Source: Chlamydiales bacterium
GTDB taxonomy: Bacteria; Chlamydiota; Chlamydiia; Chlamydiales; JBDQID01
Length of the DNA: 33,976 nt
Direction of reading: 5' to 3'
Assembly: GCA_047611865.1 (NCBI GenBank)
Contig: JBLFWS010000018.1
Coordinates: 1-33,976, forward strand
Under the pieces are notes generated by a model. It saw only the letters and a program-made list of their open reading frames with translations, had not been told where the DNA came from and did no database searches. Each line of letters starts with the position of its first letter. Position 1 is the stretch's first letter. Below, piece by piece: positions 8,768 to 32,131 of this stretch. A program made the position numbers and the translations under genes.

Positions 8768-8836
8768 AAACTTCTATGATACCGTAGCGAAAATCCCGAT
8801 TCTTCATAACGCTATAGAGTACATAGGAGCTTTTAA

Positions 8837-9425: not shown

Positions 9426-9497
9426 ACTTTCCCTTAACTCTAATACCTTAAATTGTGTAGCTTGACTTTCTAGTAAAATCTTTATTCCTGGAGGGCT

Positions 9498-10199: not shown

Positions 10200-10206
10200 A
10201 CGTCTC

Positions 10207-11047: not shown

Positions 11048-11069
11048 AACACTTTAAAACATTAAAACG

Positions 11070-12893
11070 TTAAAGGCCCAAAATCGTGTCTTTTACTTTG
11101 GTGGCTTCTGCGGCGAATACTAGTGAGGCTCTTTTCCCGCCTACGGTGTTCTGTCTTTCGCCTACGATCTGATGGAGGACTATGTCTTCGGGTTTTGCGT
11201 CTGTCGGTATCCCTGTTAGCTGTCCTGAGGTGTGCCCTCCTGTCAGACGACTTGATACTGTATTGGGGATGTAGTCGAGGGATAATTTTTCGGGGCGGAG
11301 CATCTCTTGTAGGATTCCTTTTCCCTTACTCCCTGAGGATCGATAGACCAGATGCTCTGCCAGCTGCTCTATAAAAGCTGCTCTGCTAACGCTTGTTTCC
11401 TTTTTCTCGAACCCTGATCTTTCGTATTCCTCAAATTCTTTTAGGTGCTCGACAAAGCCTAATTTGTCAAACTCCTCTATGAGCTCCCTGACACCTTTTA
11501 TGATTGTCGAGACGATTTCATGGGCCTCTGGATCAAGCTCTGAGAGCACCCCCTCTCTAATACTCTGGAGGTAGCAGCCTATTTTTTGACAAAACTCTTC
11601 ACGGGAATACTCTTGTCCCCTGATTAATACGGGGTCTGCAAATTGCAGGGAGCAGGCGTATTGAGCGTCTTTTTTTAGATGCCCTCCCGAAATCTGTGAG
11701 GCGTCTTTCTCCATGAACCCCTCTTCCGGGGTAAAGAGACCCAATTTTGTGAGCTCCTGGCACAGATTAATCATATGCTTCCGAGTTGATACTGTAGCCT
11801 TTACCCCCGCTCCTTCAGGCAAAGGATGTGAGTGCCTGTTTTGCACATGCCCTGTCTGTCCATTTGGAATATCTCCCAAATTACTCGTAGTCATTGGAAA
11901 CAGCTCCGAAAAATGATATTCGCCATCACCTGTCTGAACAGGAACAAGCCACATAACTCCAACATTCAGATGATCTTTTAGGCTAAGGTTCATGTCTGGA
12001 TTATCAATAGGACCTAGTGTTGATGGATCATTGGAAAAGGCCAGGAAAACCTTTCTTTCGGGGCGATGATTCCTATATCCATACTTTTCTGGAAACGTTA
12101 TACTTAAGCTCTGGTTCTTCTGTTTAAGAAGGGATACATATTCTTCCTGCTGTTTTTTTGATAGGTCTGCAGGAAAAGGCATAGACTGAAACATCGTTTC
12201 ACGCTCTTCATTTCCCTCTGTCTTCAGGCAGGCTTGGTTATTCGAAGAAATATCATCTTCACGCAAAATACACATCCCATGAGGAGAACTCATTATGACG
12301 TGATCCATAGATTTAGCTAATGCTTGCAGGTTTTCGTCCCCTTCAGCAGAAAAGGTATTGATGTTGACATCTCCAAGGATGGAAATAGAAACAAACCTAT
12401 CGATACGGCTCACAGCCACTAGTGAGGCCGCTATCCCGTTTAATAACTTTGTGTTTGCTTCCAGAGATTTTTTGCCACTCCCCAGGTGCAGGTGTACCAC
12501 CAAATGCTCTGAGGCATTGGCATCGTGTACGAGAAAGAGCTTGTTTTTTGTCGCCTTGCCACTTTTATCCACGGTGAGCTTTTGCAGGAAATCTTCTGCA
12601 TCATGAAAGTCCGGTCGTCCGCCAAATAAATCCTCTGCACTCATTTTAGAAACTGCAGGATCAAAATCCAATCCATAATGAAAGACCAGAACTTCCCCCT
12701 CTTGAAATGCGGAGGCCATCATTGCCTTTACAGCCACCTGCTCTTCTCCGGAGATCTCTCTATTTCCCAAAAGCCCTTGAATGACTATGCCTTGGGGAAG
12801 CTGCTGCTCCTCTGCTGCGGGAGGAATATCATCATCTTGTCTATTAACACTATTTACCAAAATGTCACCGCCAGTAGGATTTATCCCAAACAT
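11070..12893 (-). CDS. Hypothetical protein with weak endonuclease/exonuclease/phosphatase (EEP)-like motifs
   Basis: 607-aa ORF with GGAA/GCGG upstream. Motifs VVHLHLGSG, ILGDVN and KDH resemble the EEP core; otherwise unrecognised. Confidence 0.6.
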   Translation of the reverse strand: MFGINPTGGDILVNSVNRQDDDIPPAAEEQQLPQGIVIQGLLGNREISGEEQVAVKAMMASAFQEGEVLVFHYGLDFDPAVSKMSAEDLFGGRPDFHDAEDFLQKLTVDKSGKATKNKLFLVHDANASEHLVVHLHLGSGKKSLEANTKLLNGIAASLVAVSRIDRFVSISILGDVNINTFSAEGDENLQALAKSMDHVIMSSPHGMCILREDDISSNNQACLKTEGNEERETMFQSMPFPADLSKKQQEEYVSLLKQKNQSLSITFPEKYGYRNHRPERKVFLAFSNDPSTLGPIDNPDMNLSLKDHLNVGVMWLVPVQTGDGEYHFSELFPMTTSNLGDIPNGQTGHVQNRHSHPLPEGAGVKATVSTRKHMINLCQELTKLGLFTPEEGFMEKDASQISGGHLKKDAQYACSLQFADPVLIRGQEYSREEFCQKIGCYLQSIREGVLSELDPEAHEIVSTIIKGVRELIEEFDKLGFVEHLKEFEEYERSGFEKKETSVSRAAFIEQLAEHLVYRSSGSKGKGILQEMLRPEKLSLDYIPNTVSSRLTGGHTSGQLTGIPTDAKPEDIVLHQIVGERQNTVGGKRASLVFAAEATKVKDTILGL

Positions 12894-12940: not shown

Positions 12941-15223
12941 CTAAAACTCTATACTCATTTTAAGCGTCAGGTCTTTTAAGGCCTCCTGTGCTTCTATTAT
13001 ACTCGGGCAATTCGGGCGAGCTCTATGCAACATCTTCTGAAAGTATGAGACACTCTTAACGCGAATGTGGGTGAAATCGGGATATTTTTCGAAAAGACTT
13101 TTGTAAGTCTTTGCTAGATGAAGATACACATCGGGATCAATGGGAAAGCCCAGCTCTTCACTAGTCTCCAGAACCTTAAGAAGAAGCTTCTCGGCAGCAA
13201 AATCCATGCCTTTTTTCAGAAATATTTCCGCCATATGAGTATAACAATCGTGTTCCTTCCCGATAAGCAAGCCTTTCTCCAGGGCTACATAAAAGTACTT
13301 CAAAGCTTCATCATAGTTTTCTGATTTTTTGTAATCCTTTGCATATTGACAGCAAGAAAGTGGTGCCGCCACAGTAATAGAAATAGAAAACCTTCGATTT
13401 TTGTAATGATGAGATGGATCTGACTCCAACAAATCCCTTTGCCGATGAACTTCCATCTTACTCAGTTGTAGCCGCTCTAGTGTAGACCTCCGCTGAGCTT
13501 TCATTCTCTCTTGTCCCTGGAGTTTTTCTATCCACTTTGTATCAGTCGGTTCTTCAAGAGATTTCTCGAAACAGGCCATAGCCTCTTCATATAGCTTCAC
13601 CTTTCCTTCCCAGGCATCCTCTTCTAAGAGCTCAACCTGCCGGATGTGTAGCTCCGCCTTATTCCTCAACAACTCTGGAAGCTTGAAAACTTCAAGGGTA
13701 GTCAAATTCAAAGTGTGATTGGGATGTCCGATGAGGGCGACAGCTAGTTTTAAAACTTTAGAAGCCTCTGTTACCAAAGAAATTTCTGCATCAAGTCTCT
13801 GGACCTGCTCTATAAAATCTCCCTTGTCTTTATGAGGTATCTCCTGATTGATTACCTCTGAAGCTTGATCATTCAACATCCGTGCAGCTAGATTCAAATA
13901 GCGTTCTTCCTGCTTTTCTTTTGCTATTTTGGAGAGCTCCTCATTATCAAAATACAGTCGATGCAATTGAGGTATTTTGCAAAGAAGGTTCTCTTCCAAC
14001 TTGCTGGCATTCACTTTGGAACAATTTCTTAGTCCCAGACTTGTGAGAGTAGGAAAATTCGCTAAATACTCCAGGCCTGCATCGTCAATATTCGCACCTC
14101 CCAGGCGGAGGTCTTTGAGCTCTGGTAGTCCTTGCAGACTTTCAAGAGCTGCATTACTGAGACTTTTCAATCCTATAAGGTGTAAGCTTTCCAAGCTGCT
14201 AAAGTCCTTTAAAAGGGCTATTGCTCCATCACCCACCTGGGCACAGTCACTCAGGTCGAGGGAGTGTATCTCCGGATGTCCCTCTCCACTCAACTGACTT
14301 AGCTGGGTTCCTTTGACAAGAGGCAAGTTCCTACAAGACAGATGCTTTAAACTCTGTATCGCAGCAATACTTCCAAAAGCCTTGTCCGTAATCTTTTTGC
14401 AGCCGCTGATATCCAGCCTAGCTAGGTTTGAGCCATTACTAAGTATTTCTAACGCCTCGTCTCCTAGCTGTTCACAATTCTCTAGACTCAGCACCATTAA
14501 CGAATTAAACTCTGAAAGTACTCTAAGACCCTCTCCCGTCAGATCCGTACATCCCTGAAGATTTAGGCCCTTTAGTTCGGGTAAATTCAAAACAAGAAAT
14601 ACGATATCGTTATCTGAAAACTCTTTCCTTAAACTTTTAGGGATTTCCAGGTAGCTAATGCCTAATGAATGCCTTTCGATCAAATCCAGGAATGCCTCCC
14701 GTTCCATAGTCTCAGACAATTCTTGCTTGGCCCGAAAGCACCCCCTATTGATGATGTCGGAAAGTAAAGACTCTTTTAGCTCTTCGCTTTTTCCAGCTTC
14801 ATTAGATCCCAGAGAAGAAATAAACGGTGGAGATCCATGTAGGCTTGTGCTTCTGTCTTCACTGGAGGACCAACTAAGAGGTAAGCAGTCTACTGTAGTG
14901 GGACTTTTCAATAAGCTCTCGCTTGGATCATCTTGAAAAACCCTTTTTACTACAGACCGCACCAAAGGTTCTTCCCTGTAACTTAACACTTTTACCCGAC
15001 ATTCTGGGCAATGTCCTAAAAATTCTCCCGCTTCTGAATTCTCCATATCGAATATTTTTTGAGCTACTTTTTGGTTTATCAGGTGCCGACAAGGTGAAAG
15101 CGATACTGCCTCGGAAAGAGTTTCATGACTAACGGGACATATTAAGTTCCATTCCTCAAGTTTTCTTGCCTTCGAATGAGAGTAAAACAATGTATCCATT
15201 AAAGACGAAGCGCTGATACTCAT
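12941..15223 (-). CDS. U-box/RING + leucine-rich repeat + TPR protein (putative E3 ligase effector)
   Basis: N-terminal LICPVSHETLSEAVSLSPCRH...CPECR. About 8 LRRs of the L..L.L..C..L/IxD type (aa ~215-425). C-terminal TPR-like helices (YDEALKYFYVALE, YTHMAEIFLKKG, VYLHLAKTY). GGAGG RBS. Confidence 0.85.
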   Translation of the reverse strand: MSISASSLMDTLFYSHSKARKLEEWNLICPVSHETLSEAVSLSPCRHLINQKVAQKIFDMENSEAGEFLGHCPECRVKVLSYREEPLVRSVVKRVFQDDPSESLLKSPTTVDCLPLSWSSSEDRSTSLHGSPPFISSLGSNEAGKSEELKESLLSDIINRGCFRAKQELSETMEREAFLDLIERHSLGISYLEIPKSLRKEFSDNDIVFLVLNLPELKGLNLQGCTDLTGEGLRVLSEFNSLMVLSLENCEQLGDEALEILSNGSNLARLDISGCKKITDKAFGSIAAIQSLKHLSCRNLPLVKGTQLSQLSGEGHPEIHSLDLSDCAQVGDGAIALLKDFSSLESLHLIGLKSLSNAALESLQGLPELKDLRLGGANIDDAGLEYLANFPTLTSLGLRNCSKVNASKLEENLLCKIPQLHRLYFDNEELSKIAKEKQEERYLNLAARMLNDQASEVINQEIPHKDKGDFIEQVQRLDAEISLVTEASKVLKLAVALIGHPNHTLNLTTLEVFKLPELLRNKAELHIRQVELLEEDAWEGKVKLYEEAMACFEKSLEEPTDTKWIEKLQGQERMKAQRRSTLERLQLSKMEVHRQRDLLESDPSHHYKNRRFSISITVAAPLSCCQYAKDYKKSENYDEALKYFYVALEKGLLIGKEHDCYTHMAEIFLKKGMDFAAEKLLLKVLETSEELGFPIDPDVYLHLAKTYKSLFEKYPDFTHIRVKSVSYFQKMLHRARPNCPSIIEAQEALKDLTLKMSIEF

Positions 15224-17738: not shown

Positions 17739-19023
17739 CAGGGTCTTTTGATTAAAAATACTTGATAGTGATTGTGGTAATATGAACCATGGTGATTCCA
17801 AAAAATGGAGACATCATTATGGTTCAAAAAAAACAAAAGAATTTTACTCAGAAGTTGACCAAATATCTGACAGTGAAGCCTTTCTAGAGTCTGTACGTGA
17901 AGGTTTTAATGAAGTTAAAGATCCGAGGACTCAGAATAACCTGACATACAATCGTGTAGATTTATTGCTTATGATTTTGTGCGCTGTCTTGGCAGGAGCA
18001 AATACGATCCTTGATATTTATGACTATGCTCAGCTGAAAATAGAGCTGCTTCAACGCATTTTAAAAATCGATAAAGCTTCGAGTTATGATGTCTTTTGGT
18101 GGTTGTTGACTCGTTTAGACCCTGGACAGTTAGAGAGCTGTTTCGTTCGCTGGATTCAGTCTTTGCCTGAAGAAGAGCGGGAAAAACTAATAGCTATTGA
18201 TGGTAAACATCTCAGGGGGGCTGCGAGAAGCCAAAAGATTCATTTGGTATCCGCTTGGGATAGTAATCGTAGTCTATTACTGGGACAAGTGAAAGCAGAT
18301 GAAAAATCGAACGAGATTACTGCAATTCCAGAACTCCTTGACAGTCTTGATTTAACAAACGCCACTGTTACCATTGATGCTGCGGGATGTCAAACTGATA
18401 TCGTAGATAAAATTATAGATAAAGGAGGGAATTATGTGATCTCGCTAAAGGGAAATCAAGGAACTTTACAAGCAGAGGCAGATAATTTTTTCAGGCAAGC
18501 ACGAGATACAGGTCATGAAGTGGCTGACTGTAAGACCTTTTCAAGTTGTGAAAAGGGACATGGGAGAGTAGAAGAACGCGAGGTAGTTGTCACAAGTCAG
18601 TTGGATTGGCTAGATTGCAAATCCAAGTGGAAAGATCTTACATCTTTTATTGAAGTGGTCTCAAGACGCACGATCAAGGATAAAACGACAGAAGAAAGGC
18701 GTCTTTATATCTCAAATCTTGTATTAACACCGGAACGAGCTGGAGAAATAGCTCGTAGCCACTGGTCGATAGAAAACAGATTGCACTGGAATATGGATGT
18801 AAATTTTGGAGAAGACGCTAGTTTGGCCGCTATTGGAAATGCCGCTGAGAATTTCGCTGTTTTGAGGAGGTTGGCTGCTACTATGATACGAATAGATCTT
18901 GGAGGTATTAAGGGAACTGCGAAGAGAAGGCGGCAAGCTGCTTGGGATGACTCGTGGACCATTAGACTCTTGTCAAGAATATTCGAGGTAAAAGTGTAAA
19001 GCATTTTTAATCAAAAGACCCTG
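17739..19023 (+). mobile_element. ISAs1-family insertion sequence
   Basis: 25-bp terminal IRs with one mismatch: CAGGGTCTTTTGATTAAAAATACTT (17739) and AAGCATTTTTAATCAAAAGACCCTG (ends 19023). No target duplication visible. Confidence 0.92.
17782..18999 (+). CDS. ISAs1-family (H-repeat) transposase
   Basis: DPR, LCAVLAG, IAIDGK, KSNEITAIPELL, VTIDAAGCQ, LKGNQ, HGRVE and RSHWSIENRLHW. Confidence 0.95.
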   Translation: MNHGDSKKWRHHYGSKKTKEFYSEVDQISDSEAFLESVREGFNEVKDPRTQNNLTYNRVDLLLMILCAVLAGANTILDIYDYAQLKIELLQRILKIDKASSYDVFWWLLTRLDPGQLESCFVRWIQSLPEEEREKLIAIDGKHLRGAARSQKIHLVSAWDSNRSLLLGQVKADEKSNEITAIPELLDSLDLTNATVTIDAAGCQTDIVDKIIDKGGNYVISLKGNQGTLQAEADNFFRQARDTGHEVADCKTFSSCEKGHGRVEEREVVVTSQLDWLDCKSKWKDLTSFIEVVSRRTIKDKTTEERRLYISNLVLTPERAGEIARSHWSIENRLHWNMDVNFGEDASLAAIGNAAENFAVLRRLAATMIRIDLGGIKGTAKRRRQAAWDDSWTIRLLSRIFEVKV

Positions 19024-19303
19024 AGTAAGGAAGGGAATTTTAGTTTAAAAATAGCAAGAGCAGACATGAGGCAGTCTGAAATACTGATCTTTTTTTCCAG
19101 TCCTTGCCTTCCTCTTGGAGGTTCTTTTACTTTCTTGAAAATGTTTCGTGCTTTTCTAAGCAATCCTTTAGCGGAAAGATTTACTTTCTCAATTAGTCTT
19201 GCAGCCATTTTTCTTCCAAACTTGAGAGTTTACGAAAAGAAAATTCTACACGACTCACAAATATTTTATAATTAGATATTTAAAATTTCACCGGGAATTG
19301 CTG
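19024..19303 (-). mobile_element. Left-end remnant of a second IS (N-terminus of a DDE transposase), cut by ISAs1
   Basis: ORF from 19208 reads ...ISISDCLMSALAIFKLKFPSLL, which I recognise as a transposase N-terminus, and runs directly into the ISAs1 IR. A putative terminus CAGCAATTCCC lies on the minus strand at 19303-19293. Confidence 0.65.
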
Positions 19304-19406
19304 AATGATTATTTATAAATATTTTGCTTGTTTCTGTTGATCTTGAAAATATGAAATCTTATGGTGAAAGCATTTCAATATTTGAACCAATGCAGGAGTT
19401 CATCCT

Positions 19407-22400
19407 ATGTCTACTCTTCGTCCATCCCCACCAAAAAATCAGTCTGGATTGTCTGCGACTGGTCTGGAAGAACTTAACATAAATTTTAGCCAGCCGGGTC
19501 TTCCGTATTGTCCAAGATACGCTCAATTTGCGACGTTTTACTTAAAAGACAGCAAGGGCGATTCAAGCTATAAGTTGTTTATGGAGCTTGCAAAATTAAC
19601 AGATCAGTTTTGCAGGGAAACATCTTATAAAACAGTGGTGATCAGGGGGGTAAGCTTTGATCTATGGAAAAAGTGGAGCGAAAAGAAAACGTCTCAGCTG
19701 CCTTTGGGTATGGGAAATACATCTGTTTTAGAAGAATTAAACCCTCCATTTGCGAAAAGTGATGGTGATCTATGGTGCCATATCAAATCCGATGACCCTG
19801 CTAAGTGTCAGGAGCTATTCCAGATCATTGAAGATTTTCTAAGCATTGTCACAATTAAATGCGTCGCTACTGTTGCAGCCAAAAAAGAGCAAGAGCGCGT
19901 TCTTGGTGGACGCTTTGTGGATGGTGTTACAAATCCGGTAGATCCAGTGAATTTATCTTCTCGTGTCATTGTAGGAGATGAAGATCCTGAACATTTGGGA
20001 GCGGCCTATGCAATTGCCCAGCGTTTTGTACATAACTGGGAAAAACTCGATGACATGCAAGAGACTGCAAAAGAAGATATGATTGGCAGGAAAGAAAATG
20101 AAGTAGTTTTACCAATTGAAGACGAAAGAAGTCATATCAAATGCGTCAGACAAATGGACAAGGAAAGAATCAACTTCAGAATCATGCGTCAAGCAGTGCC
20201 TTACGGACAAAGGGATGGCAATCCTGGACATGAAAAAGGCGTATACTTTGCGGGTTATGCAAAAGAAACTTCTGTTTTTGATGAAGTATTAAGGGGCATG
20301 GCCGGAAACAAAAAAGGCTATATCAAAGACAAGCTGATGAATGTCACTCATAGTGCAGAAGGAAACTTCTGGTACATTCCTTCGGCGAAAGAACTCGAAT
20401 TGAAAGGTCAAGAGGGGGAAGTGAATGTCCCCATGGTCGAATACTTCAATACTAGAAGTAAAAACGACTACATGTTTTATAACACCAAGGACTACCTCAA
20501 AAACGTAAACAAAAGCAAGCTTGTTGAAGATTGTCCGATCAGCAACAGAATCACTCAACTTCTTGGTCTACAGTTTTCCCGATGGCGTGATGGTTGGTAC
20601 AAAAAAATCGAAACTCCACCTTTGGGTCACTTGAAAGATTACGTACTGAAGGAAGAAGAGTACGTATTAGATGGCTCTGCTGCTTTAAGAAAGGGTAAGG
20701 CAATTGAAATCAGCTTGAGTCGTGTACTGATAAGTAAAGAATACAGCAAGCGAGCAAACCTTTATAAGATCCATCCCGCAGAAATCATCGTGGGAAATAT
20801 GCCGCAACTATCTTTGGGAACCGGCTCTCAAGTGATGGAGTATTTAAGAGATGATGAAAAGATTTCCTTCTTCTTTAAGAACCTGAACGAATATTCAGCA
20901 TCGGGACATAACGTTCCAGATTATTCTCTTTTGGTAAAATTAGGTGCAGGTGAACTTAAAAGTCGCTTTGAAGAAAAGCTTAAAACGGCGACAGGGGAAA
21001 AAAAGGATTACTATCAGTCCGTTGTCTGGTCATTGAATGGCTTTTCAAACTTTGTCAGCAGCTACGGTGATCTGGCAATGGAAATGGCAAAAAGTTTGCC
21101 TGAAACAGAAAAAATGGAAATCCAGAATCTTGAAGAAATCTCCCGCAGAATGAAAAAGATAGCGACTAAAAAGCCCGAAGGTTTTTTAGAGTCCCTACAG
21201 CTTATTTTCATCATGAACTGTGCTTTACATCAAATCGGCGAGTCCATGTCCATAGGACGTCTGGATCAATGGCTGATTGACAGCTACAATGAAGATATAT
21301 CAAATGGATTGTTGAACAAAGAAAATGCACAGGAAATCCTCGATGCTTTCTGGCTGAAAATGGACGAGACTGTGCTTTATAACAGCACGCACATGAATGA
21401 CTACTTGAACTACGGAAGTGGTGCAGTTTTTTATTCAGCTGGTAATTTCCCTCAAGGGGCAGCCATGAACCAGTGGGTACAGCAGGTAACGGTGGGTGGA
21501 TACAAAGCAAACAATTCTGCAACACCCGAAGCTGCAAGCAATGATCTAACTGTCATGTGTCTTAGATCTGCTCGTCGTTTACCTATGAATGCACCTTGTT
21601 TATCTTTACGCGTTCATAAAGACATGGACCCCACACTTGTAGAAGAAGCTGCCAAAGCGGTCCTCAGCGGAGGAGCTCACCCGGTGTTGCTTCACGATGA
21701 TAAACTCATTCCTGCACTAAAAGCTAGTGGGCCGATGGATTTGGAAGATGCAAGGGATTACACAAGTGATGGCTGCTATGAACCAATTATTCAGGGTAAA
21801 ACTGAATGGGCATTTAGTTATGTTCCTGTTTTACCAATTGTTGGTATGGCCATGAATCAGGGTGCAACAATTATGGGTGCTGGGCCGACTCACTTGAATG
21901 GTTTAAAAGAAGGCTGGAATTCTCCTGTGGCACAAGACATCAAGAACTTCGATGAGTTCATGGATATCTTCTTTACCCAATGGCGTTGGGCGATGAACAA
22001 GTTCTACAATAGCTTGATGAATGGTTATGGAGATCTTTGGAATGTTTGCCCAAGTCCACTATTTTCTTCCATGGTGCATGATACTCTGGAGACAGGGAAA
22101 GACATGACCAATGGGGGAGCGAGATATCATATCATAGCTCCGATGATGTGCGGCATGGCTAATACCATTGATTCCCTACATTCTATTAATAAAATGGTCT
22201 TTGATAAAGACAGCTGTATTACGACTCTCCCAGAGCTACTACAGACATTGCGTTGCAATTGGGGACAGAACATGATCGAGCCATGGAATAGTTCGATCGC
22301 AGGAGATATGCGAGCAGAAGATAAATCACTACGCTATAAGTCTCTTAGAGACTTTTCTCTGTCACTGAATAAGTTCGGACAGGGAAATGATCCAGAGATT

Positions 22401-23042
22401 GTAGCTCTCGCGGAAAGAGTTGTGCAAGGATGTGTGGATATTATCCATGACTCTTTGGACAATGCGATACCTCCCATAAAAGATGCTTACGAAAAAATTA
22501 AAGAGAAATACAAACTTCCCAACAGGGACTTCGCTTTCACAGTGACCCCAGGTGTGGGTACTTTCGAAGACAATGTAGGCTTGGGAGAGGGCATGGGTGC
22601 ATCCGCTGATGGACGCACAATGGGAACACCAATTGCAGAGGATTTTGCTCCTGCACCATCCCCACAGGATCTTCCCATAGACAATAAGCCTCGCAATATT
22701 TTTAAAGCTTTGAAAGACTGGAACATCGAGGCGATTAATTTGGGTATCTCCAATGCCGCTCCAGTTGATGTAAATATTCATGAAGAATTTCCATTAGAAG
22801 ATTTGTCAAAAGTTATTACTCAATTTGCCAATAGTGAAATTGGCTCGAATATGATGACCATTACATGTGGGGATACATCCACTTTTGAAAAAGCCGCACA
22901 ATTCCCTGAAAGATACGACCTTGTGAGAGTTCGTATGGGGGGATGGAGTGAATTTTTCGTGGCTATGTTTTCCAACCACCAACAACACATCATGCGAAGA
23001 CCTTTCTTCGTTCACCAAGACTGTCCCCATAAGCATCAATAA
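19407..23042 (+). CDS. Dyp-type heme peroxidase fused to a glycyl radical enzyme (PFL-superfamily) domain
   Basis: Aa ~35-330 are DyP: DLWCHI, GRFVDG (GxxDG distal Asp), QRFVHN, IGR, SHIK (proximal His), IMRQAVPYG (distal Arg), YIPS. Aa ~420-1205 are GRE: EIIVG, GHNVPDY, SIGRLDQ, DGCYEP (Cys loop), ASADGR, AAQFPERY, RVRMGGWSEFF (Gly loop). AGGAG RBS. Confidence 0.9.
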   Translation: MSTLRPSPPKNQSGLSATGLEELNINFSQPGLPYCPRYAQFATFYLKDSKGDSSYKLFMELAKLTDQFCRETSYKTVVIRGVSFDLWKKWSEKKTSQLPLGMGNTSVLEELNPPFAKSDGDLWCHIKSDDPAKCQELFQIIEDFLSIVTIKCVATVAAKKEQERVLGGRFVDGVTNPVDPVNLSSRVIVGDEDPEHLGAAYAIAQRFVHNWEKLDDMQETAKEDMIGRKENEVVLPIEDERSHIKCVRQMDKERINFRIMRQAVPYGQRDGNPGHEKGVYFAGYAKETSVFDEVLRGMAGNKKGYIKDKLMNVTHSAEGNFWYIPSAKELELKGQEGEVNVPMVEYFNTRSKNDYMFYNTKDYLKNVNKSKLVEDCPISNRITQLLGLQFSRWRDGWYKKIETPPLGHLKDYVLKEEEYVLDGSAALRKGKAIEISLSRVLISKEYSKRANLYKIHPAEIIVGNMPQLSLGTGSQVMEYLRDDEKISFFFKNLNEYSASGHNVPDYSLLVKLGAGELKSRFEEKLKTATGEKKDYYQSVVWSLNGFSNFVSSYGDLAMEMAKSLPETEKMEIQNLEEISRRMKKIATKKPEGFLESLQLIFIMNCALHQIGESMSIGRLDQWLIDSYNEDISNGLLNKENAQEILDAFWLKMDETVLYNSTHMNDYLNYGSGAVFYSAGNFPQGAAMNQWVQQVTVGGYKANNSATPEAASNDLTVMCLRSARRLPMNAPCLSLRVHKDMDPTLVEEAAKAVLSGGAHPVLLHDDKLIPALKASGPMDLEDARDYTSDGCYEPIIQGKTEWAFSYVPVLPIVGMAMNQGATIMGAGPTHLNGLKEGWNSPVAQDIKNFDEFMDIFFTQWRWAMNKFYNSLMNGYGDLWNVCPSPLFSSMVHDTLETGKDMTNGGARYHIIAPMMCGMANTIDSLHSINKMVFDKDSCITTLPELLQTLRCNWGQNMIEPWNSSIAGDMRAEDKSLRYKSLRDFSLSLNKFGQGNDPEIVALAERVVQGCVDIIHDSLDNAIPPIKDAYEKIKEKYKLPNRDFAFTVTPGVGTFEDNVGLGEGMGASADGRTMGTPIAEDFAPAPSPQDLPIDNKPRNIFKALKDWNIEAINLGISNAAPVDVNIHEEFPLEDLSKVITQFANSEIGSNMMTITCGDTSTFEKAAQFPERYDLVRVRMGGWSEFFVAMFSNHQQHIMRRPFFVHQDCPHKHQ

Positions 23043-23060
23043 AAAAATATGAACAAGGCG

Positions 23061-23097
23061 CCGTCAGGTATTCACTACCTGACGGGTTCTTTAATTT
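23061..23097 (+). terminator. Intergenic hairpin, terminator or attenuator-like
   Basis: Perfect 10-bp stem CCGTCAGGTA-ttcac-TACCTGACGG followed by an interrupted T-rich tract (GTTCTTTAATTT). Confidence 0.6.
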
Positions 23098-23111
23098 TAA
23101 AGAGGTGACAG

Positions 23112-24122
23112 ATGTTACAAGCACTTAATGATTTAAATGCCAGTGCAGTTGACTGGTGGTTTATTTACAAGATGCCCGACAATATTGGGCCTGATTCAGA
23201 CACCAAAGGTGATGAATATCTATACTACGATCCAGAAACAGGAAAAGGATTAACAAAATCTGACAAGGTTTTAGATAAAGGACAAAGCGCACTGGACGTG
23301 ACTTTGGAGCAGGTATTTAATTCAAAAGGAATGGAAGATGGCAATAGCTACATCCTTTATAACGATGAAAAACCCGATTCGGATAAAAACCGTTCCAGCT
23401 GTGGTCACTGTAAAGGGATTTTAGCTTTCAACAAAAAAAATAACACGGGATTCTATCTTCTTCATTCGACACCACGATATCCGCTGGATAAGAAAAGTGA
23501 ACTTCCTAGTAACGAATTAATTTATGGGCAGACCTATATTTGTGTCACTCTCCCAGACTATGAAACAGCCAATCGTATCGCAGAAGTATTGCGCACACAG
23601 CATGAACCACAAGTATACACCACTCATTTAAGTGAAGACATTACGAAAGATGAAAGTGTGTACAAATTGGGTAGTAACAATAACACCCCCGAGCCCGAAG
23701 AACCAACTTTCATTAGCTTCAAATCAAAAGCCGGCAAGGAATTTCAACTGGCTGGAAAAAATCGTAAATGGGGTAAAGATTTCTGGATTGATTTGATAGG
23801 GCCGCATTTGGGTGTAAGTCTGAATGTAGAGAGCTGGAGACGCGGAGCATCTCCCGGAAATGAAGATTCAGATGGTAAAGACGAGACCTTAAATGCTCAA
23901 AACATTGACTTCACATCGGTTGGTTTGAAAGATTACACCTTTCATTACACAAAAGACCATTCCAAATGGGGAGTCAGTACAGATGCAGCAAATCCTTGGG
24001 TTTGTATAGCAGATATTAACCGCATGGTTTCTCAAGAGAAGCGTGGTGGTGGTGCTTTGATTTTTCAAGAAGAACAACTTTGGAAGAATTTGAAATCTGT
24101 AGAAAACACCGATACAAAATAA
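23112..24122 (+). CDS. Deoxyribonuclease II family protein (PLD superfamily)
   Basis: VDWWFIYKMP, YNDE.P, GHCKG (HxK 1), HSTPRYP, YGQTYIC, DHSKW (HxK 2) and WVCIADINR..SQEKRGGGAL. GAGGTG RBS; no signal peptide evident. Confidence 0.92.
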   Translation: MLQALNDLNASAVDWWFIYKMPDNIGPDSDTKGDEYLYYDPETGKGLTKSDKVLDKGQSALDVTLEQVFNSKGMEDGNSYILYNDEKPDSDKNRSSCGHCKGILAFNKKNNTGFYLLHSTPRYPLDKKSELPSNELIYGQTYICVTLPDYETANRIAEVLRTQHEPQVYTTHLSEDITKDESVYKLGSNNNTPEPEEPTFISFKSKAGKEFQLAGKNRKWGKDFWIDLIGPHLGVSLNVESWRRGASPGNEDSDGKDETLNAQNIDFTSVGLKDYTFHYTKDHSKWGVSTDAANPWVCIADINRMVSQEKRGGGALIFQEEQLWKNLKSVENTDTK

Positions 24123-24144: not shown

Positions 24145-25683
24145 ATGACCGATAAACAATATCTGGAAGCCAACGAAAAAGCGCTGGAGAACATAGAGCA
24201 TATTGTGGTTCTAATGCTTGAAAATCGCTCTTTTGACAATTTGCTCGGATGGTTATATGACGGTGTTGAAGTACCCGATGGCCAGATATTTGAGGGATTA
24301 AATGAAAGTATGTGGAATCCCTTGAATAATATAGATACGGATGGAAACCCGTTTGTAGAGAAAGTCTCTGTCGCGAAAAACGGGATGCCTCGTACAATCG
24401 GAAGAAAAAAGAGATCAGTTAAAGAAGATTTTACTCTACCAGCTCCCGATCCAGGAGAGGGCTACAAAGATACCAACGCCCAGCTCTTTGGAGTGTATAA
24501 GGTAGATGACATCTACCCGCCGGCTCCCACAAATATGGGCTTCGTCAACAACTACAAAGATGCCATGCTCTACGGAACATACTCCTTTGGAGATGCTCCC
24601 ACAGATCCAAGAGACATCATGGTTTGCTATACACCGGAACAAACCCCGGTATTGAGCACGCTTGCTAAAGAATTTGCGGTCTGTGACCACTGGCATTGTT
24701 CAGTGCCTTCTCAGACTTTGCCAAACCGTGATTTTGTTCATGCAGCAAGTTCCAGTGGTAATGTGAACAACAAACCTAATGATACATGTAACGCAAGAAC
24801 AGTGTTCAATCAATTGCAAGATGCCATTGATGGCGGGCGTAATGAATTAAGCTGGGGTGTTTATTCCGGCACATCCAAGGGTAAAGCCTTTTCATTGACT
24901 CGTACAATCATGACACAATTGCATGACATCAAATACAACGATAATTTTTATGGTATAGATCAGTTTTATAAAGATGCAAAAGCGGGAAGTCTTCCAAGCT
25001 ACAGCTTTTTAGAGCCGCAGTTTTCAGGACCAGATCAAAATGATCAGCATCCACCACAGGATATTCGTTATGGGGATAAGTTGATTGCCGATGTCTATAA
25101 TGCTGTTTTACAGTCACCCAAATGGGAAAATACTTTGCTTGTAATCACCTATGACGAGCATGGGGGTTGTTTTGATCACGTAGCTCCTCCCAATGGAGCC
25201 AAGTCTCCGATTGAGGGTGCCGGTGAAGATGGCTTTCGTTTCAACCGTTTTGGTGTCAGAGTACCAACTGTTTTAATCTCGCCATTGATCAAAAAAGGCT
25301 GTGTGGCTAGACCTGCTGGCTGGACTCCTTTTGATCACGCATCGGTTATATCGACTGTTAGAAAAACGTTTAAACTGGACAAGCCTTTAAATGCTCGTGA
25401 CGAGGCAGCACCGGATTTGGGTTGTGTGCTGACTCTGACCACAGCAAGAAAAGACAAGCCGGAGGTAAAGCCTTTGGCCCTTCCTAAACAGATTGAATCC
25501 AGTCATGTGAATGACTTACACCGTATGGCGGAAGATGCTTTGCATTCCGTAACGGGTACAAAGCGTAAAGAAGATCATTCGATTCATGATTATATTCATG
25601 AAACTTACCATGATCATTTTTATGCTAAAAAATCCAGCAAGGATGCAACGGATAAACGAGAAGTGGCTGATGTGGGTGCGTAA
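24145..25683 (+). CDS. Phospholipase C / acid phosphatase (phosphoesterase family, PlcH/AcpA type)
   Basis: IEHIVVLMLENRSFD, DPGE, QTLPNR (Thr nucleophile), LPSYSFLEP, DQHP, TYDEHGG.FDHV.PP and GVRVP. AGGAG RBS; no Sec/Tat signal evident. Confidence 0.92.
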   Translation: MTDKQYLEANEKALENIEHIVVLMLENRSFDNLLGWLYDGVEVPDGQIFEGLNESMWNPLNNIDTDGNPFVEKVSVAKNGMPRTIGRKKRSVKEDFTLPAPDPGEGYKDTNAQLFGVYKVDDIYPPAPTNMGFVNNYKDAMLYGTYSFGDAPTDPRDIMVCYTPEQTPVLSTLAKEFAVCDHWHCSVPSQTLPNRDFVHAASSSGNVNNKPNDTCNARTVFNQLQDAIDGGRNELSWGVYSGTSKGKAFSLTRTIMTQLHDIKYNDNFYGIDQFYKDAKAGSLPSYSFLEPQFSGPDQNDQHPPQDIRYGDKLIADVYNAVLQSPKWENTLLVITYDEHGGCFDHVAPPNGAKSPIEGAGEDGFRFNRFGVRVPTVLISPLIKKGCVARPAGWTPFDHASVISTVRKTFKLDKPLNARDEAAPDLGCVLTLTTARKDKPEVKPLALPKQIESSHVNDLHRMAEDALHSVTGTKRKEDHSIHDYIHETYHDHFYAKKSSKDATDKREVADVGA

Positions 25684-25927: not shown

Positions 25928-27822
25928 GTGCGCCACGAGGCGTATAATCACTCGCGGCTGAGAGAGCCGCCACAGAAGCACCGACCCAGTGCAATGTGTA
26001 CCGAGTCTTGAGTACATGAAGGTAACAACATGGATTAAGCGTAGACAGGAATGCTGTAGGCCGTAAGCCATAGGCTGAAGTGATTGAGCTCCGTTAACGC
26101 TTATTTTTAGGTGGGGCGATGAGGTCGAAAACTCAGAAGGCAACATCATCCGGACCAGCAATGGGCAAGGTGCGGGTGACCATCTCGGGGTCAGAGAGCA
26201 TGGCATGCAGTAAAAGTGATTATATGAACGTGGGAGATCCTATTCGCTCTTCAAAGTAAGTATGGGAAGACAAGTGTAATAGCAAGGAATTCCAAACGGC
26301 GAATAGGAAGTCAGACAGGGTATAGTACTGTTGAAGCTGAGTAATGTCAGTGGAGGGAAGGCCCTGGGGTAAAATCAACCTTGTAGGAGAAACGTGTGGA
26401 ATCCAACAGAGATCCAATAAGCACGAACACAAAACTGAATAGGATAGCGTGGCTATCGGCTAAAGAACCTGATAAGAAGTTTGATCAACTTATGCATCAC
26501 TTTAATGTAGGTTCACTGGCTGTCTGTTTCCACGAGCTGGATGGAAAGAAGGCCGTAGGGATAGATGGAATTGACAAGGCGCGTTACGGAGAAAACTTGG
26601 ATAACAATCTTGAAGACTTGACCGCACGTATGAAACGTATGGCATACAAGCCAGCGCCTGTGCGACAAGTTCTAATACCAAAGGAAGGAAAGCCTGGGGC
26701 AACCCGTCCATTAGGTATTAGTAACTTCGAAGACAAGCCTGTTCAGAAAATGATGCAGAAGATATTGGAAAGTATCTACGAGCCTCTCTTCTTGAACTGT
26801 TCCTTTGGGTTCAGGCCACGAAGAGGTTGCCACGATGCTATCAGAGCTCTGCATCAACATCTGTATAGGTACGAAATCCAAACAGTGCTGGATGTGGATC
26901 TAGCAAATTTCTTCGGTACAATAGATCACGCGATCCTGCTAAATATGCTAAAGGAGAAAATCAAGGATCAGAAACTGATTCGATATCTCACACGCATGCT
27001 AAAAGCAGGAGTATTATTATCAGGAAATGACTTGACTATGAGTGAGGAAGGGGTTCCGCAGGGTTCTGTGTGCAGTCCCGTCCTTTCTAATATATTTGCG
27101 CACTATGTAATAGACGACTGGTTTGACAAGGTGGTCAAGATACACTGTTGTGGCCAGGTAGAAATGTTTAGATACGCTGATGACCTAGTGGTCTGTTGCC
27201 AATATGAACATGATGCCCGGAAAATTAACAAAGCTCTTAAAGGTAGACTGGAAAGTTCAAACTTCGAATTAATGAAGAGAAAACTAAACTAGTCTCTTTT
27301 AATAAGCGTAACTAGCACAGTGACAATAGACCAAAGGCCTTTGATTTCCTTGGGTTGACATTCTACTGGGGACGCTCTCGAAACAAAGGCGCTATAATTC
27401 GCAAAGTAAAAACAGAGGGGAAACGCCTGCGGAGTAAACTTACGAATGTCAATCTGTGGTGCCGCAAAATTAGAAACAGGTATCGACTACCTGTTGTATG
27501 GAAGCTCTTTTGCTTAAAGTTGGAAGGACATATCAGATACTATGGTATATCAACCAATCTTCAGGCGGTTAAAAAGTTCCGACATCAGACAAGGCGAATA
27601 TTATTTAAACACCTGAATCGTCGTAGCCAACGAAAATCCTGTAATTGGGAGCAGTTTGAAATGTATGAAAAGTTACATCCTCTTCCCAAAGCGAGGATCT
27701 GCCATGCGCTTTTCTGAAAGCCGATAAATACGTGAATGGTTTTATCTTGAGCCCGTTGCGTTAGTTGCGCATGGCGGGTTCTAACGAGGGGGGAGTTTGG
27801 GTGACCAGCTCCTCTACCCTCT
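25928..27822 (+). mobile_element. Group II intron (1895 nt)
   Basis: 5' end GTGCG at 25928. Domain V GAGCCCGTTGCG...GCATGGCGGGTTC at 27749-27781 with the AGC triad. Domain VI has a bulged A at 27816, seventh from the end. Boundaries are independently confirmed because excision restores the 38-bp IR. Confidence 0.92.
26396..27717 (+). pseudogene. ltrA: Group II intron reverse transcriptase/maturase, disrupted, no endonuclease domain
   Basis: AVGIDG, IPKEGK..TRPLGI, SFGFRP, DLANFFGTIDH, GVPQGS..SP.LSN and RYADD; domain X FDFLG and LEGHIRYYG. One-base deletion at about 27252-27254 (restoring LEKFKLRINEEKTK) and an in-frame TAG at 27313-27315. Confidence 0.9.
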
Positions 27823-28582: not shown

Positions 28583-29330
28583 CCTAAATTCCCGAAAAAA
28601 TGTAGCTAGGTCGTGCCTGAAAGCTGAATGTTTAGACTCGCCAAAATCTCTCGTTGAGGTTTTGTAACTTCGGTGAGGATATGGCCATATTTGCCTGAGT
28701 ACTTGATTTTCGTTAACGTATCCATTTCTTGTAATAGTTCACGCGCCGTATACCTTTCAATAAGATTTGACTTTCTCATCTCATTGCGCAATGCACTTAT
28801 ATAGATGAGAGCGATGAATTGAACAAACAGCCTACCATCAACGGTCGATGAATTGTGCATTCGAAGACGCTTCATGTCGATTTGATTCTTTAAATCATCA
28901 AAACACTTCTCTACCACATCTTTGTTACGGTAGATCTGTAGAGCCTCAACTGGATTTTTGATTCCACTGCTCAATAATACCTGAAAGCCTGCATAACGTT
29001 TAATGTACTGACTGACAGCTATCGTGTTAAACGAGACCTTCATTCCTCTTTTAGGTGTGGTCTTTATTATGAAGAACGTGTCGTAGGCTTCTTGATGGCT
29101 GCTAATCAGAGTTCCTGACTCTAATTCCTCCTTGTATCCCATCAACTCTTCATTGAATTGATCAACGGCATCCGCCCGCGCACGGGCATTGTAGTAAAGT
29201 TGTATGTAGCAACGCCGCTTACTCGTTCCCCATGAATACAGGTGCGAGTGAACATAAAGGATCTCATTATCAATCTTCCTATATCCCTCAGGCCCGTGGA
29301 TTGTCTCATAAATATCATCAATGACATGCT
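28583..29330 (-). mobile_element. IS1634-like element remnant (C-terminal part of the transposase plus one end)
   Basis: YAGFQVLLS, ALQIYRNKDVVEKCFDDLKN, RLRMH...DGRLFVQFIALI and TEVTKPQREIL; stop at 28606. Putative IR CCTAAATTCCCG at 28583. The first ~28 aa of ORF 28606-29415 are antisense Tn3 sequence. Confidence 0.8.
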
Positions 29331-32131
29331 GTACCCATTTATTGTTTATAAGGAAACCTATGCCCAACATCAGCGTTTGATTCTGGAGTACTTCGGCTAT
29401 AGCCCATTCGATCAATCTGTAAAGGTTTCCATCACCAGAGAGATTGAAGCTCTTGTTAGGGTTCAGTTTCGACCAAAGTTGGTATTGCTCGACAGTATTC
29501 AGATGCTGACACGCAAAAAGATCGCGATTCCAAGTTACAACGTGTTGGCTAATTTAATCATCGAAGCCATCAATCAACACCACGTTGAGCTTTGTGCGAT
29601 CGTAAATGATTATCTCGATAAAAATCAATACACTAAGCTCAACGATCTGTTGGAAAAGGAACCTGAAAACAGTTCTGACGAGGGCTGGCGCTATCGCCTT
29701 ACGTTACTAAAGAAGCCTTACCAATCCACGCAACCGTCGAAAATCAAAGCTAATCTGGCAGATCTAAATATCTTACAGACTCTCTACCATGACCTTATTC
29801 CAGTTGTGAAACGCCTAGACTTAAGTTACGAACGCATTCGATACTACGCCTACTCGGTCATCAAGGCACAGGTTCCACAGATCTCGCGCCGCACCAATGA
29901 AGACCGCTATCTGCACCTTATCGCCTTCGTTGTGTACCAAACATTCAGACTCAACGACACTTTGATAGATACGCTGTTGAGTGCTGTGCAAAACAGTAGT
30001 TAATACCGTGGAGAAAGATCAAAAAGAAACATATTTCCAGGAGAGAGAACAGCGCAACCAGTCTTTTTCAGTGCTCGTTGATGAGCTTCGGAAAAACGTT
30101 CATAATACACTTTCGGAAATCAGATATATCGTAGCTGATGGGCAGCTAGATAATGATCAGAAAATTTCTTTAATCAACACGAGATTAAATTCAGAAAATG
30201 GCAAGCCGCATCAGGTCGATAAGAAAATTGACGAGTTCAAAAAAAATGCAGTAAAACTTCAGAGATGTAATGGCTATTTTGCATTACTTGAGTCACGTTC
30301 CATTAAGTTGCAACACCGCGTCTCTGACATCATACGCCAAGTGCAGTTCGCACCAAATTGCAGTAAACCGGCATTGTGGAGTGCTTTGCAGTATTATCAG
30401 GAAAATGATGGTAACGTTAACAAAAACGCGCCTGTTGAATTTTTATCTATCGAATAACGATTTGAATTGACCGCTCAGGATGGAAAGTTCCGAATTTCAT
30501 TGTATAAGGCATTACTCTTTATCAAAATTGCTGAGGCTATCAAGTCTGGAGCATTGAATCTAATCCAATCAGAAAAATACCGCCCTCTCGACGAATACTT
30601 GATTCCAAAGGTTGATTGGGAAGCAAATCGTGACGAATATCTTCAACGAGCCAATCTCAGGGATTTTACCGACTGCAAGACCTCTTTAAAAACGCTTGAT
30701 CGAGAACTCGAGAGCAGTTACCAAAAAACCAACGAGAATTTTAAATCAGGCAAAAATCCATATCTGAAAATGCGAACCAACAATACCTTTCATGTGAGTA
30801 CACCTAAGCAAGAGGAAGTGGAATGTTTGTCTCTGGGAGATTTTTTTCCAGAACGAAAGTATATCTCTATGCTTGAGATGCTTGCAACAGTCGACCACGC
30901 TACGAATTTTCTCAACGAGTTTGAACACTGGCAGGTCAAATACCAACGCGCTAAACCAACCAAGAAAATTTTATTTGCCGGTATCATGGGATACGGCTGT
31001 GATATAGGTCACCGAAAACTGGCTCAGATTTCCAAACAGATCGATGAGGCTGAGCTGAATAATACGGTCAATTGGTATTTCTCACTCCAGAATATACAGA
31101 ACGCCAACGATCGCATCCTGCAATTTACTGATAGGATGAATTTACCGAACATATACCGTAGAGAATCCGATGTACTGCACACATCAAGTGATGGACAGAA
31201 ATTTGAAGTTGCTGTGGATTCCTTAAACGCCAATTATTCCTTTAAATACCTGGGAAAAGACAAAGGTGTCAGCGTGGTGACTTTCATCGATATGCGTAAC
31301 TTGATGTGGCACTCCACAGTGATAAGCTCCGCTGAAAGGGAAGCAGCCTATGTGATCGACGGTCTGATTCATAACGATGTAATAAAAAGTAACATAAATT
31401 CCACTGACACTCATGGGTATTCGGAAATTGTATTTGGAGCAACCCACCTCCTAGGATTTGAATTCGCTCCAAGAATAAAAGGCCTTAGTCGGCAGCATCT
31501 CTGTGCTTTCAAGAATCGTAAGCATTACGAGAAGAAAGGGTATGTGCTGCTACCAGACCGCTATATCCGCGAGTCTCTCATTGAGGACAAATGGGATGAA
31601 GTTCTACGCTTTATAGCGACCATCCAATTGAAGTTTACGACTGCCTCACAGCTCTTTAAACGTCTGAACTCCTACTCCCGGCAACACCCGCTTTACCGGG
31701 CCCTCAAAGAATTTGGCAAGATTCCAAAGACTCTCTTTATTTTGAAGTATCGTGACGATCACCAATTTAGGCAGGCAATCGAGAAACAACTTAATAAAGT
31801 GGAAGGATCCAATAAATTTTCCAAAGCTATTTCTTTCGGCCATAACCACGAGTTCATCCAAAGTGAGAAGGAGGACCAGGAAATTGCCGAAAGCTGCCGG
31901 CGATTGATTAAAAATGCAATCGTATGCTGGAACTACCTTTATCTCTCACGCAAAATTAACAAAGAGAAAAATGAGGAACGCAGGGCTGAACTGACAGAAT
32001 CGATTCGTAACGGATCGGCAGTAACCTGGAAACATTTCAATCTACATGGAGAATTCGATTTTTCGGATGAGAGAATGGTCGATTCGATAGGCTTGGCTCT
32101 TTCCAAAAATTCGGTTTTAAAACGAGACTGA
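29330..32131 (+). pseudogene. tnpA: Tn3-family transposase, 5'-truncated and disrupted
   Basis: SSDGQKF, NANYSFKY.G, EAAYVIDGL, STDTHGYSE..FGATHLLG..FAPRIK, ALKEFGKI.KT.FIL.Y, QLNKVE and NAIVCWNYLY. Frameshift at A4 29990-29993; in-frame TAA at 30455-30457. Left boundary approximate. Confidence 0.9.

Follow-up and report, generated by a model that had tools for sequence, protein, structure and literature searches.

A DyP heme peroxidase fused to a glycyl radical enzyme in a chlamydial genome in which no activase was found

We analysed the whole of contig JBLFWS010000018.1 of a Chlamydiales bacterium (assembly GCA_047611865.1; 33,976 nucleotides, hereafter the window), which carries a gene that joins an N-terminal DyP-type heme peroxidase to a C-terminal glycyl radical enzyme (GRE). 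To our knowledge, all characterised GREs are confined to anoxic life, and their radical and their iron-sulfur activase both die in air. We favour the reading, with a probability of roughly 45%, that the heme domain and peroxide start a diol-dehydratase-like GRE radical without a radical S-adenosylmethionine (radical-SAM) enzyme. The architecture of the fusion, the conservation of its residues, the lack of an activase, its neighbourhood and its horizontal transfer are established below. The fusion belongs to a widespread family, known but uncharacterised, of which it is a chlamydial member acquired by horizontal transfer, and the DyP-GRE architecture itself is not new, having been noted since at least 2016. 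What is new is the genome-wide lack of an activase, the argument from single residues that an eliminase-type radical site is intact, and the recurrent link to phosphoesterases.

Domains and catalytic residues of the fusion

The fusion gene (Table 1) is a single unbroken frame across both domains with no internal stops, and Pfam at E <= 0.01 places two families on it in total, Dyp_perox_C (PF20628) and PFL-like (PF02901). A preliminary description made from the DNA alone had claimed an intact 1211-residue DyP-GRE open reading frame (ORF), which its ATG start, its stop-free frame and its Pfam and NCBIfam domains bear out. That description also named a stop or a misassembly at the domain junction as a danger. 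In an independent assembly of run X1, a 7103-base contig spans positions 19275-23500 with no differences and no gaps, and a contig of run X3 spans 19275-20879, so that both bridge the junction. Together with the same full-length architecture in many phyla, these contigs rule out a misassembly or frame error. The two runs may come from the source sample of the window. At position 22805, inside the GRE domain, a run X3 contig (depth 9) carries one G>A, which looks like strain-level variation.

In the N-terminal part, Dyp_perox_C matches residues 168-328 (E 1e-21) and the NCBIfam model TIGR01413 (Dyp_perox_fam) residues 71-329, at 128 bits against a cut-off of 100.5; homologue matches start around residue 20-25. 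The best structural relatives are DypB of Rhodococcus jostii RHA1 (3qnr, 3vee) and the class B DyP 9obr (E 6e-25 to 6e-21), and the alignment to 3qnr and 9obr runs as far as residue 336. The proximal His, distal Asp and distal Arg all align to DypB, in agreement with the preliminary description, except that Arg replaces the first Gly of the classical GxxDG motif (RFVDG). Other positions differ from DypB: its Asn246 is Ala263 in the fusion, and a Met and a Phe of the stand-alone enzyme are replaced by Trp211, which is invariant in the fusion family, and Trp322, which is kept in at least 90%. We regard these two Trp residues as candidate hole-hopping positions. The DyP domain here is fused, neither free nor encapsulin-targeted as DypB would have it. 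The window genome encodes HemN and HemW.

The C-terminal part, a ten-stranded barrel of the PFL-like kind, is matched by PFL-like at residues 487-1013 (E 1.5e-95), and Foldseek (E 1e-37 to solved GREs) puts at the top 1,2-propanediol dehydratase, CutC and glycerol dehydratase (template modelling (TM) score, target-normalised, 0.73-0.78), along with YbiW and PflD. The best GRE-part matches are the B12-independent diol and glycerol dehydratases of Roseburia (5i2a, 5i2g) and Clostridium butyricum (glycerol dehydratase (GDH), 1r8w), at E 1.7e-45, TM (target) 0.73-0.77 and ~21% identity, with a phmmer alignment to 5i2a over residues 472-1198. The fusion shares with them the Cys-x-Glu loop, the His164 equivalent, the GKTE motif and the Gly loop; it differs in its N-terminal heme domain, in having no activase gene found, in ~18 extra residues at the FPxG motif and in its hosts, many of which are aerobic. 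The GRE part scores under the cut-off of every NCBIfam GRE model (254 against 678 bits for PFL2-3, 171 against 1050 for CutC), and the Pfam Gly_radical model has no match on the fusion at E <= 0.01.

The preliminary description had named both GRE loops, and each aligns to solved GREs: GCYEP to GCVEP of 5i2a and to C433/E435 of 1r8w, and VRMGGWS to VRVAGYS of 5i2a, PflD 8yjo, CutC 9f3w and 1r8w. Its view of the Gly loop as a variant holds in part, since the loop is present but its GG form is not special to the fusion, the nearest stand-alone GREs reading RVRMGGW or RVGGW. Among the GDH residues, whose catalytic roles (that of His164 included) are those given in the GDH literature, His164 corresponds to His501 and Glu443 of the GKTE motif to Glu800, which is found in 52/52 homologues. 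Three others are changed: Asp447 is Phe803 (52/52), His281 is Glu612 (51/52) and Ser282 is Pro or Ser613. The hallmarks of an eliminase or dehydratase GRE (the GCxE Glu and the His164 equivalent) are therefore present and the substrate-binding residues of GDH are not kept, so that by alignment the fusion retains the catalytic apparatus of a 1,2-eliminase GRE with a different substrate pocket. The expansion at the FPxG motif is family-specific and nearly invariant, with many Tyr, Phe and Trp residues; D665, G670, A673, F681-G684 and N688-W690 are all 52/52.

These residue counts come from an alignment of 52 homologues that are 41-62% identical. The description's proposal leaned on the Gly and the Cys being conserved, and they are (Gly1179 in 52/52, Cys790 in 51/52). 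At the level of genomic loci, the Gly loop is present at 51 of 56; at four of the five others the contig ends or the frame is broken. The last of them is a Candidatus Albibeggiatoa metagenome-assembled genome (MAG; locus L038, match 8001-11411), the sole full-length homologue with Tyr for the loop Cys, whose sequence ends ahead of the Gly loop. The joint loss of Cys and Gly loop in this natural "double-dead" variant fits a coupled function.

An AlphaFold2 model of residues 12-1211, built with 50 sequences, has a mean predicted local distance difference test (pLDDT) of 87.6 and a predicted TM score (pTM) of 0.88, which predicts a defined, fixed packing of the DyP and GRE domains. Inside the model, confidence is lowest in the expansion at residues 652-691 (pLDDT 57-67) and at the Gly-loop tip (below 50).

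Family distribution and the search for an activase

A word-indexed search returned 637 proteins at E <= 1e-3. Among the best 120 of these, 116 have both Pfam domains, with lengths of ~1180-1260 residues and 41-62% identity, and the four without a DyP domain are 763-906-residue pieces from short contigs. Counting one genome per species, a relative is encoded in 202 stretches, of which we kept 56 loci. The carriers belong to Pseudomonadota, Bacteroidota, Ignavibacteriota, Planctomycetota, Verrucomicrobiota, Chloroflexota, Acidobacteriota, Gemmatimonadota and Thermodesulfobacteriota, with one Methanosarcinales MAG. They include Ralstonia, Janthinobacterium, Massilia, Collimonas, Pseudomonas cichorii and Kordia, which are known as aerobes. 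Searching 1.84 billion representatives with a profile yielded 6223 matches at E <= 1e-3; of 18 additional profile matches that we inspected, 11 have the DyP domain, some also with C2, C-type lectin or DUF2278 domains, and annexin domains occur in two word-search homologues. Annexin, C2 and C-type lectin domains are typically eukaryotic, and the extra domains, DUF2278 among them, point to eukaryotic members of the family.

Frame breaks interrupt the fusion gene at three loci, in a Chloroflexia MAG (L039), a Comamonadaceae MAG (L041) and a Lysobacter MAG (L067); in the first of these (genome G019) the open frames are of 783 and 257 residues. The interrupted genes are either pseudogenes or assembly errors. 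An Oleiphilus MAG (G012) and an Acidobacteria MAG (G023) each have two fusion-type PFL-like genes, so the family can be duplicated within one genome.

The caution in the preliminary description that similar architectures might already exist was right, as they have been in print since 2016 and 2022. The 2016 paper describes "DyP B-PFL" of Chaetomium cochliodes and of bacteria as a fusion of "elusive" significance, infers a transfer from proteobacteria to ascomycetes and reports a putative PFL activase for the fungus, whose fused gene responded to H2O2 with a 3-fold and to peracetic acid with an 18.5-fold induction (PMC5041501). The 2022 paper places the fusion in DyP subclass P2, which it calls "unexplored", and suggests that the DyP part shields PFL and its activase from H2O2 (PMC9719856). 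The published DyP-PFL fusions have the same domain order (N-terminal class B/P DyP, C-terminal PFL-like GRE) and length (~1200 residues) as ours, which differs in being chlamydial and the sole one among 201 genomes of its phylum. Both papers regard the family as hypothetical, and in them a PFL activase is assumed or reported (PMC5041501, PMC9719856); our genome survey does not support such an activase for bacteria.

In the window, the preliminary description had seen no ORF with the activase motif CxxxCxxC, and a six-frame scan confirms that the motif is absent from all frames. The draft genome to which the window belongs as a complete contig measures 3.59 Mb (272 contigs, 95.5% complete, 41.5% G+C), and in this genome no GRE activase scores above cut-off (best E 0.056 for TIGR02494 and 5e-4 for NrdG). 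The PflA-like AmmeMemoRadiSam family, TIGR04337, does not occur in it. Its 14 radical-SAM (PF04055) matches are all assigned to housekeeping families, namely MoaA, MiaB, MtaB, RimO, HemW, LipA, BioB, RlmN (two), HemN (in two pieces), QueE, ArsS and EpmB, and the fusion is its sole PFL-like gene. The TIGR02494, PF04055, NrdG and TIGR04337 searches and the six-frame scan thus turned up no hidden activase in the window or its genome.

We then extended the survey to the genomes of 50 of the 56 loci, counting throughout one (G034) that is flagged unpublished. TIGR02494 is above cut-off in three carriers and reaches 127-135 bits in three others. These six are exactly the carriers with an extra stand-alone GRE (758-876 residues), and the activase adjoins that GRE, away from the fusion. 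In the remaining 44/50 we found no GRE activase, and fusion-type genes are the only PFL-like genes. A self-activating enzyme, as the description imagined it, should not come with a dedicated activase of its own, and this is the pattern seen. The absence holds in complete genomes too, such as those of Nitrincola and Ralstonia. Three weaker TIGR02494 matches inspected in carriers are AmmeMemoRadiSam enzymes; this family as a general partner of the fusion was ruled out, as it is present in only 19/51 genomes. Among 14 control genomes, PFL-like genes and activases above cut-off occur in three, with PF02901 in E. coli, B. thetaiotaomicron and L. lactis. Near the fusion, no radical-SAM family recurs among the annotated neighbour clusters of 57 loci, and no CxxxCxxC protein was seen in the three conserved neighbour clusters scanned for the motif.

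These data bear directly on a conventional explanation, in which the fusion is an ordinary GRE served by an unrecognised radical-SAM activase (a promiscuous housekeeping protein, AmmeMemoRadiSam or an unassembled gene) and its DyP domain only scavenges peroxide or senses oxidants. We consider this quite improbable. In its support stand the protective role suggested in print for P2 (PMC9719856), the putative activase of C. cochliodes (PMC5041501), the occurrence of TIGR04337 and the draft state of the window genome. A clade with Desulfobacca, Scalindua and the Methanosarcinales MAG also places the fusion in lineages regarded as anaerobic. Against it, 29/50 carriers and the window genome have neither a PflA-type activase nor TIGR04337, the activases that do exist each sit beside a separate stand-alone GRE, the radical-SAM proteins of the window genome all have named housekeeping families, and no radical-SAM gene recurs among the annotated fusion neighbours of the 57 loci. 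The usual picture of an anaerobe's GRE with a radical-SAM partner fails on the activase, which is not found, while the catalytic residues are all under strong selection.

Proposed radical initiation by the heme domain and its alternatives

The preliminary description had offered two roles for the DyP domain, installing the radical or protecting it. The second loses its footing, as 44/50 carriers have no known route for making a radical and hence nothing to protect. In the reading that we favour, the heme domain would react with peroxide to give a high-valent heme or a protein (Trp/Tyr) radical, the oxidising equivalent would move inside the rigid two-domain protein to the Gly/Cys pair, and the resulting thiyl radical would power a radical elimination on a small hydroxylated substrate. 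That substrate may be made or released by phosphoesterases, which in the window would be the DNase II-type and phospholipase C (PLC)/acid-phosphatase-type enzymes. That the protein binds heme and forms a radical is what we infer from the features described here, as are the route of transfer, the chemistry and the nature of the substrate. In favour of this reading stand the conserved catalytic residues, the joint loss of Cys and Gly loop in Albibeggiatoa, the lack of an activase in the window genome and in most carriers surveyed, the aerobic carriers, the predicted packing of the two domains, the induction of the fungal gene by H2O2 and peracetic acid, and the two Trp residues as candidate hopping positions.

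Such a scheme has precedents of logic. In prostaglandin H synthase and class Ia ribonucleotide reductase (RNR), a metal or oxidant site makes a protein radical that is relayed to a distant site of H-atom abstraction, and class I compared with class III RNR is a precedent for an O2-compatible radical generator in place of a glycyl radical. The priming proposed for the fusion would be analogous to that of prostaglandin H synthase and class I RNR, to which it has no sequence or fold relation.

Several points weigh against initiation by the heme domain. Glycyl radicals are destroyed by O2 and a stable one in aerobes is chemically awkward, so the idea needs a transient or shielded radical. The distal Arg is missing in 5/52 homologues and the distal Asp is His in 11/52, so that peroxide activation by the classical DyP pair is not universal. 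The PflA-like radical-SAM enzyme AmmeMemoRadiSam is present in 19/51 genomes. Most surveyed carriers are drafts or MAGs of unreported completeness, for which absence means "not found", and the window genome is itself an incomplete draft. A terminator-like stem-loop directly after the fusion stop codon makes co-transcription with the two phosphoesterase neighbours uncertain in the window genome. Finally, we found no biochemical characterisation of any fusion member in the literature searched, which lay outside subscription journals.

A different explanation does without radical chemistry altogether. Here the GRE barrel would be a substrate-binding or acid-base (Cys/Glu/His) module, or a scaffold, for oxidation by the DyP heme, with Gly1179 and Cys790 kept for structural or non-radical catalytic reasons. 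If a glycyl radical never forms, activases would be expected to be missing from the window genome and from 44/50 carriers, as they are, and many hosts would be expected to be aerobic; the failure of the Pfam Gly_radical model and a pocket unlike that of known dehydratases (Phe803, Glu612, Pro/Ser613) agree with this as well. The residues relevant to a radical are nevertheless the most conserved, including Glu792 (52/52) and the RxRxGGW context (51-52/52) besides Gly1179 and Cys790, and Cys and Gly loop vanished together in the single homologue that lost them. Nor are we aware of a GRE-fold protein whose function is non-radical, and on balance we judge this explanation unlikely.

Initiation by the heme domain can be extended to a wider proposition, which we hold more tentatively: that DyP-GRE fusions would be the first glycyl/thiyl radical enzymes needing neither S-adenosylmethionine nor a radical-SAM activase, that the heme domain and peroxide (re-)install the radical and so permit GRE-type 1,2-elimination in air-breathing bacteria, fungi and an aerobic chlamydia, and that the fusion is the final enzyme in a mobile module for phosphoester salvage (a nuclease or phospholipase-type esterase, then a phosphatase, then the radical lyase). 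An activase-free GRE in aerobes would be unexpected to specialists. If heme and peroxide do replace the activase, radical eliminations would have a third way to start, besides B12 and radical SAM; a "strictly anaerobic" fold in ~200 species genomes, many of them aerobic, would be accounted for; and a radical lyase in a single polypeptide without an activase would be useful for biocatalysis. Should the favoured idea be wrong, the family would still be the first in which a GRE fold is a candidate for work other than radical chemistry.

Conserved neighbours, horizontal origin and the rest of the contig

To describe the neighbourhood we collected ORFs within 8 kb of the fusion at 57 loci, clustered them and searched with the cluster hidden Markov models. 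A PF04185 phosphoesterase (PLC/acid phosphatase family) occurs at 13/57 loci, at 12 on the same strand and mostly without a signal peptide. A DUF2608 protein, presumably a member of the HAD phosphatase clan, carries a signal peptide and lies directly downstream of the fusion at 9/57, and DNase II (phospholipase D superfamily) is found at 4/57. At least one of these three families is present at 19/57 loci. A 427-residue secreted protein with an invariant RHVEAHP...WEH and weak histidine-phosphatase fold matches occurs at 8/57, and adding it brings the count to 27/57, so that phosphoesterases of three or four unrelated folds lie near the fusion at these loci. A small protein with a GMC oxidoreductase is found at 5/57.

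The 427-residue protein is directly downstream of the fusion at L026, L032, L037, L041, L055 (a genome flagged unpublished), L060, L063 and L066, with a mean column identity of 69% and no Pfam match even at E <= 5. Its structural model is poor (pLDDT 62.9), the fold matches are weak (E ~1e-4) and an Atlas lead scores 0.88; together with the RHxE...EH motif, this weak fold and Atlas evidence suggests that the protein probably belongs to the histidine-phosphatase superfamily as a new branch.

The window has a DNase II gene and a PF04185 phosphoesterase gene immediately downstream of the fusion (Table 1). DNase II is typically eukaryotic and lysosomal; it adjoins the fusion also in Ignavibacteria, in one Kapaibacterium MAG and in one gammaproteobacterial MAG. 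The window esterase scores under the cut-offs of the PC-PLC and acid-phosphatase equivalogs. Gene order is DNase II, esterase, fusion in Ignavibacteria and fusion, DNase II, esterase in the window, and the retention of the neighbours despite rearrangement between phyla argues for functional coupling. In the favoured reading, the substrate of the fusion is probably a hydroxylated product of the co-encoded phosphoesterases, and their products are a lead to it. It is of interest beside these neighbours that the second-best sequence match of the GRE part, E. coli PflD/YbiW (8yjo, 8id7, 8id0; E 1.9e-45), has PDB titles naming bound 1,5-anhydroglucitol-6-phosphate or 1,5-anhydromannitol-6-phosphate and, going by these titles, acts on phosphorylated polyols; no evidence ties the fusion to those substrates, and PflD/YbiW, unlike the fusion, are stand-alone GREs with dedicated activases.

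Three other ideas about the neighbourhood were rejected. PADLOC assigned no anti-phage defence family to the fusion or either neighbour. A scan for a Pho-box upstream of the gene gave 43 matches in 583 kb (32 loci, up to 3 mismatches) with no enrichment, and none near the gene was better than 3 mismatches. Response regulators and ABC ATPases in the flanks belong to generic families, none above the equivalog cut-off, and were not taken as PhoB or Ugp.

Table 1. Features of the fusion gene and of the window. Conservation is given as the number of the 52 aligned homologues; the codon positions of the catalytic residues were checked.
Feature	Positions	Strand	Conservation	Remarks
DyP-GRE fusion gene	19407-23042	+		1211 codons, ATG start, TAA stop
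DyP-type heme peroxidase domain, class B / subclass P2-like	19473-20414	+		about residues 23-336
Asp172, distal acid, motif RFVDG	19920-19922	+	41/52	His in remaining 11; aligns with D of GFVDG in DypB
His243, proximal heme ligand	20133-20135	+	52/52	aligns with SNSH His of DypB
Arg261, distal arginine	20187-20189	+	47/52	aligns with ILR Arg of DypB
Complete GRE domain	20439-23039	+		about residues 345-1211
His501, equivalent of His164 of 1r8w	20907-20909	+	52/52	by alignment
Family-specific expansion at FPxG motif	21360-21479	+		residues 652-691; ~18 residues more than 5i2a and PflD 8yjo
Cys loop Cys790-Tyr-Glu792 (GCYEP)	21774-21782	+	Cys790 51/52; Glu792 52/52	putative thiyl Cys and general-base Glu of eliminase-type GREs
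Gly loop RVRMGGWS	22926-22949	+	Gly1179 52/52	Gly1179 (22941-22943) in radical-Gly position
Gly1178, Trp1180, Arg1174, Arg1176		+	51/52 each	Gly-loop context
Terminator-like 10-bp stem-loop with T-rich tail	23061-23085	+		directly after fusion stop codon; pattern match only
DNase II family (phospholipase D superfamily) gene	23112-24122	+		PF03265, E 5e-81; no obvious signal peptide
PF04185 phosphoesterase gene	24145-25683	+		E 2e-72; no obvious signal peptide
IS4-type DDE transposase, upstream of fusion	17782-18999	+		PF01609, PF13808; contig depth 4-8x that of gene
Multi-copy repeat between insertion sequence and fusion	19024-19303			assembly breakpoints at both ends
Group II intron-type reverse transcriptase	26396-27717	+		split over two ORFs, 298 + 120 residues
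Tn3-family transposase region	29242-32131	+		three consecutive ORFs, 253, 158 and 554 residues; last one Pfam-checked
CPAF-like protease	1731-3473	+		Peptidase_S41 + PDZ_4
Bleomycin-hydrolase-like C1 peptidase	6620-8119	-
760-residue protein	12941-15223	-		N-terminal CPxxH...CPECR pattern
Eukaryote-type Ser/Thr kinase	32240-33715	-

No fusion homologue was found in 200 other genomes of the phylum at E <= 1e-20, and this absence together with the transposase flanks makes horizontal acquisition the simplest reading of the gene's origin. In a FastTree phylogeny of 53 full-length proteins (leaving out ORFs of up to 1000 residues, namely L024 with 972, L039 with 769, L041 with 498 and L052 with 648), the phyla are thoroughly intermixed and the fusion is sister to a Planctomycetota MAG protein (61% identity, SH-like support 99). 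The upstream flank is repetitive: the IS4-type element and the 280-bp repeat are multi-copy in the metagenome assemblies (depth 234-437 against 57; the repeat is at 234-244 in X1), with loose ends or several alternative junctions at 19023/19024 and 19303/19304. A promoter-like site at 19245-19272 (10/12 matches) falls within the multi-copy repeat. Downstream, the group II intron reverse transcriptase and the Tn3 region look like decaying mobile elements.

Such surroundings could mean that in this chlamydia the fusion is a recent passenger of mobile DNA with no role for its host, whatever the family does elsewhere. The lack of the gene in the rest of the phylum, the mobile elements on both sides and the nearest relative in another phylum would all fit. 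However, no break interrupts the 3.6-kb frame, which keeps every catalytic residue, two functionally linked neighbours were imported or retained along with the gene, and its G+C content of 42.2% is close to that of the genome, which implies that the import is not very recent; we therefore regard a mere passenger as very improbable.

Elsewhere on the contig, the 760-residue protein has an N-terminal pattern resembling a U-box or RING, followed by F-box/LRR-type leucine-rich repeats (weak Pfam LRR matches) and a helical tail, and resembles the eukaryote-like ubiquitin-ligase effectors of amoeba symbionts. The CPAF-like protease, the C1 peptidase and the kinase (Table 1) make up a typical chlamydial effector-like gene set.

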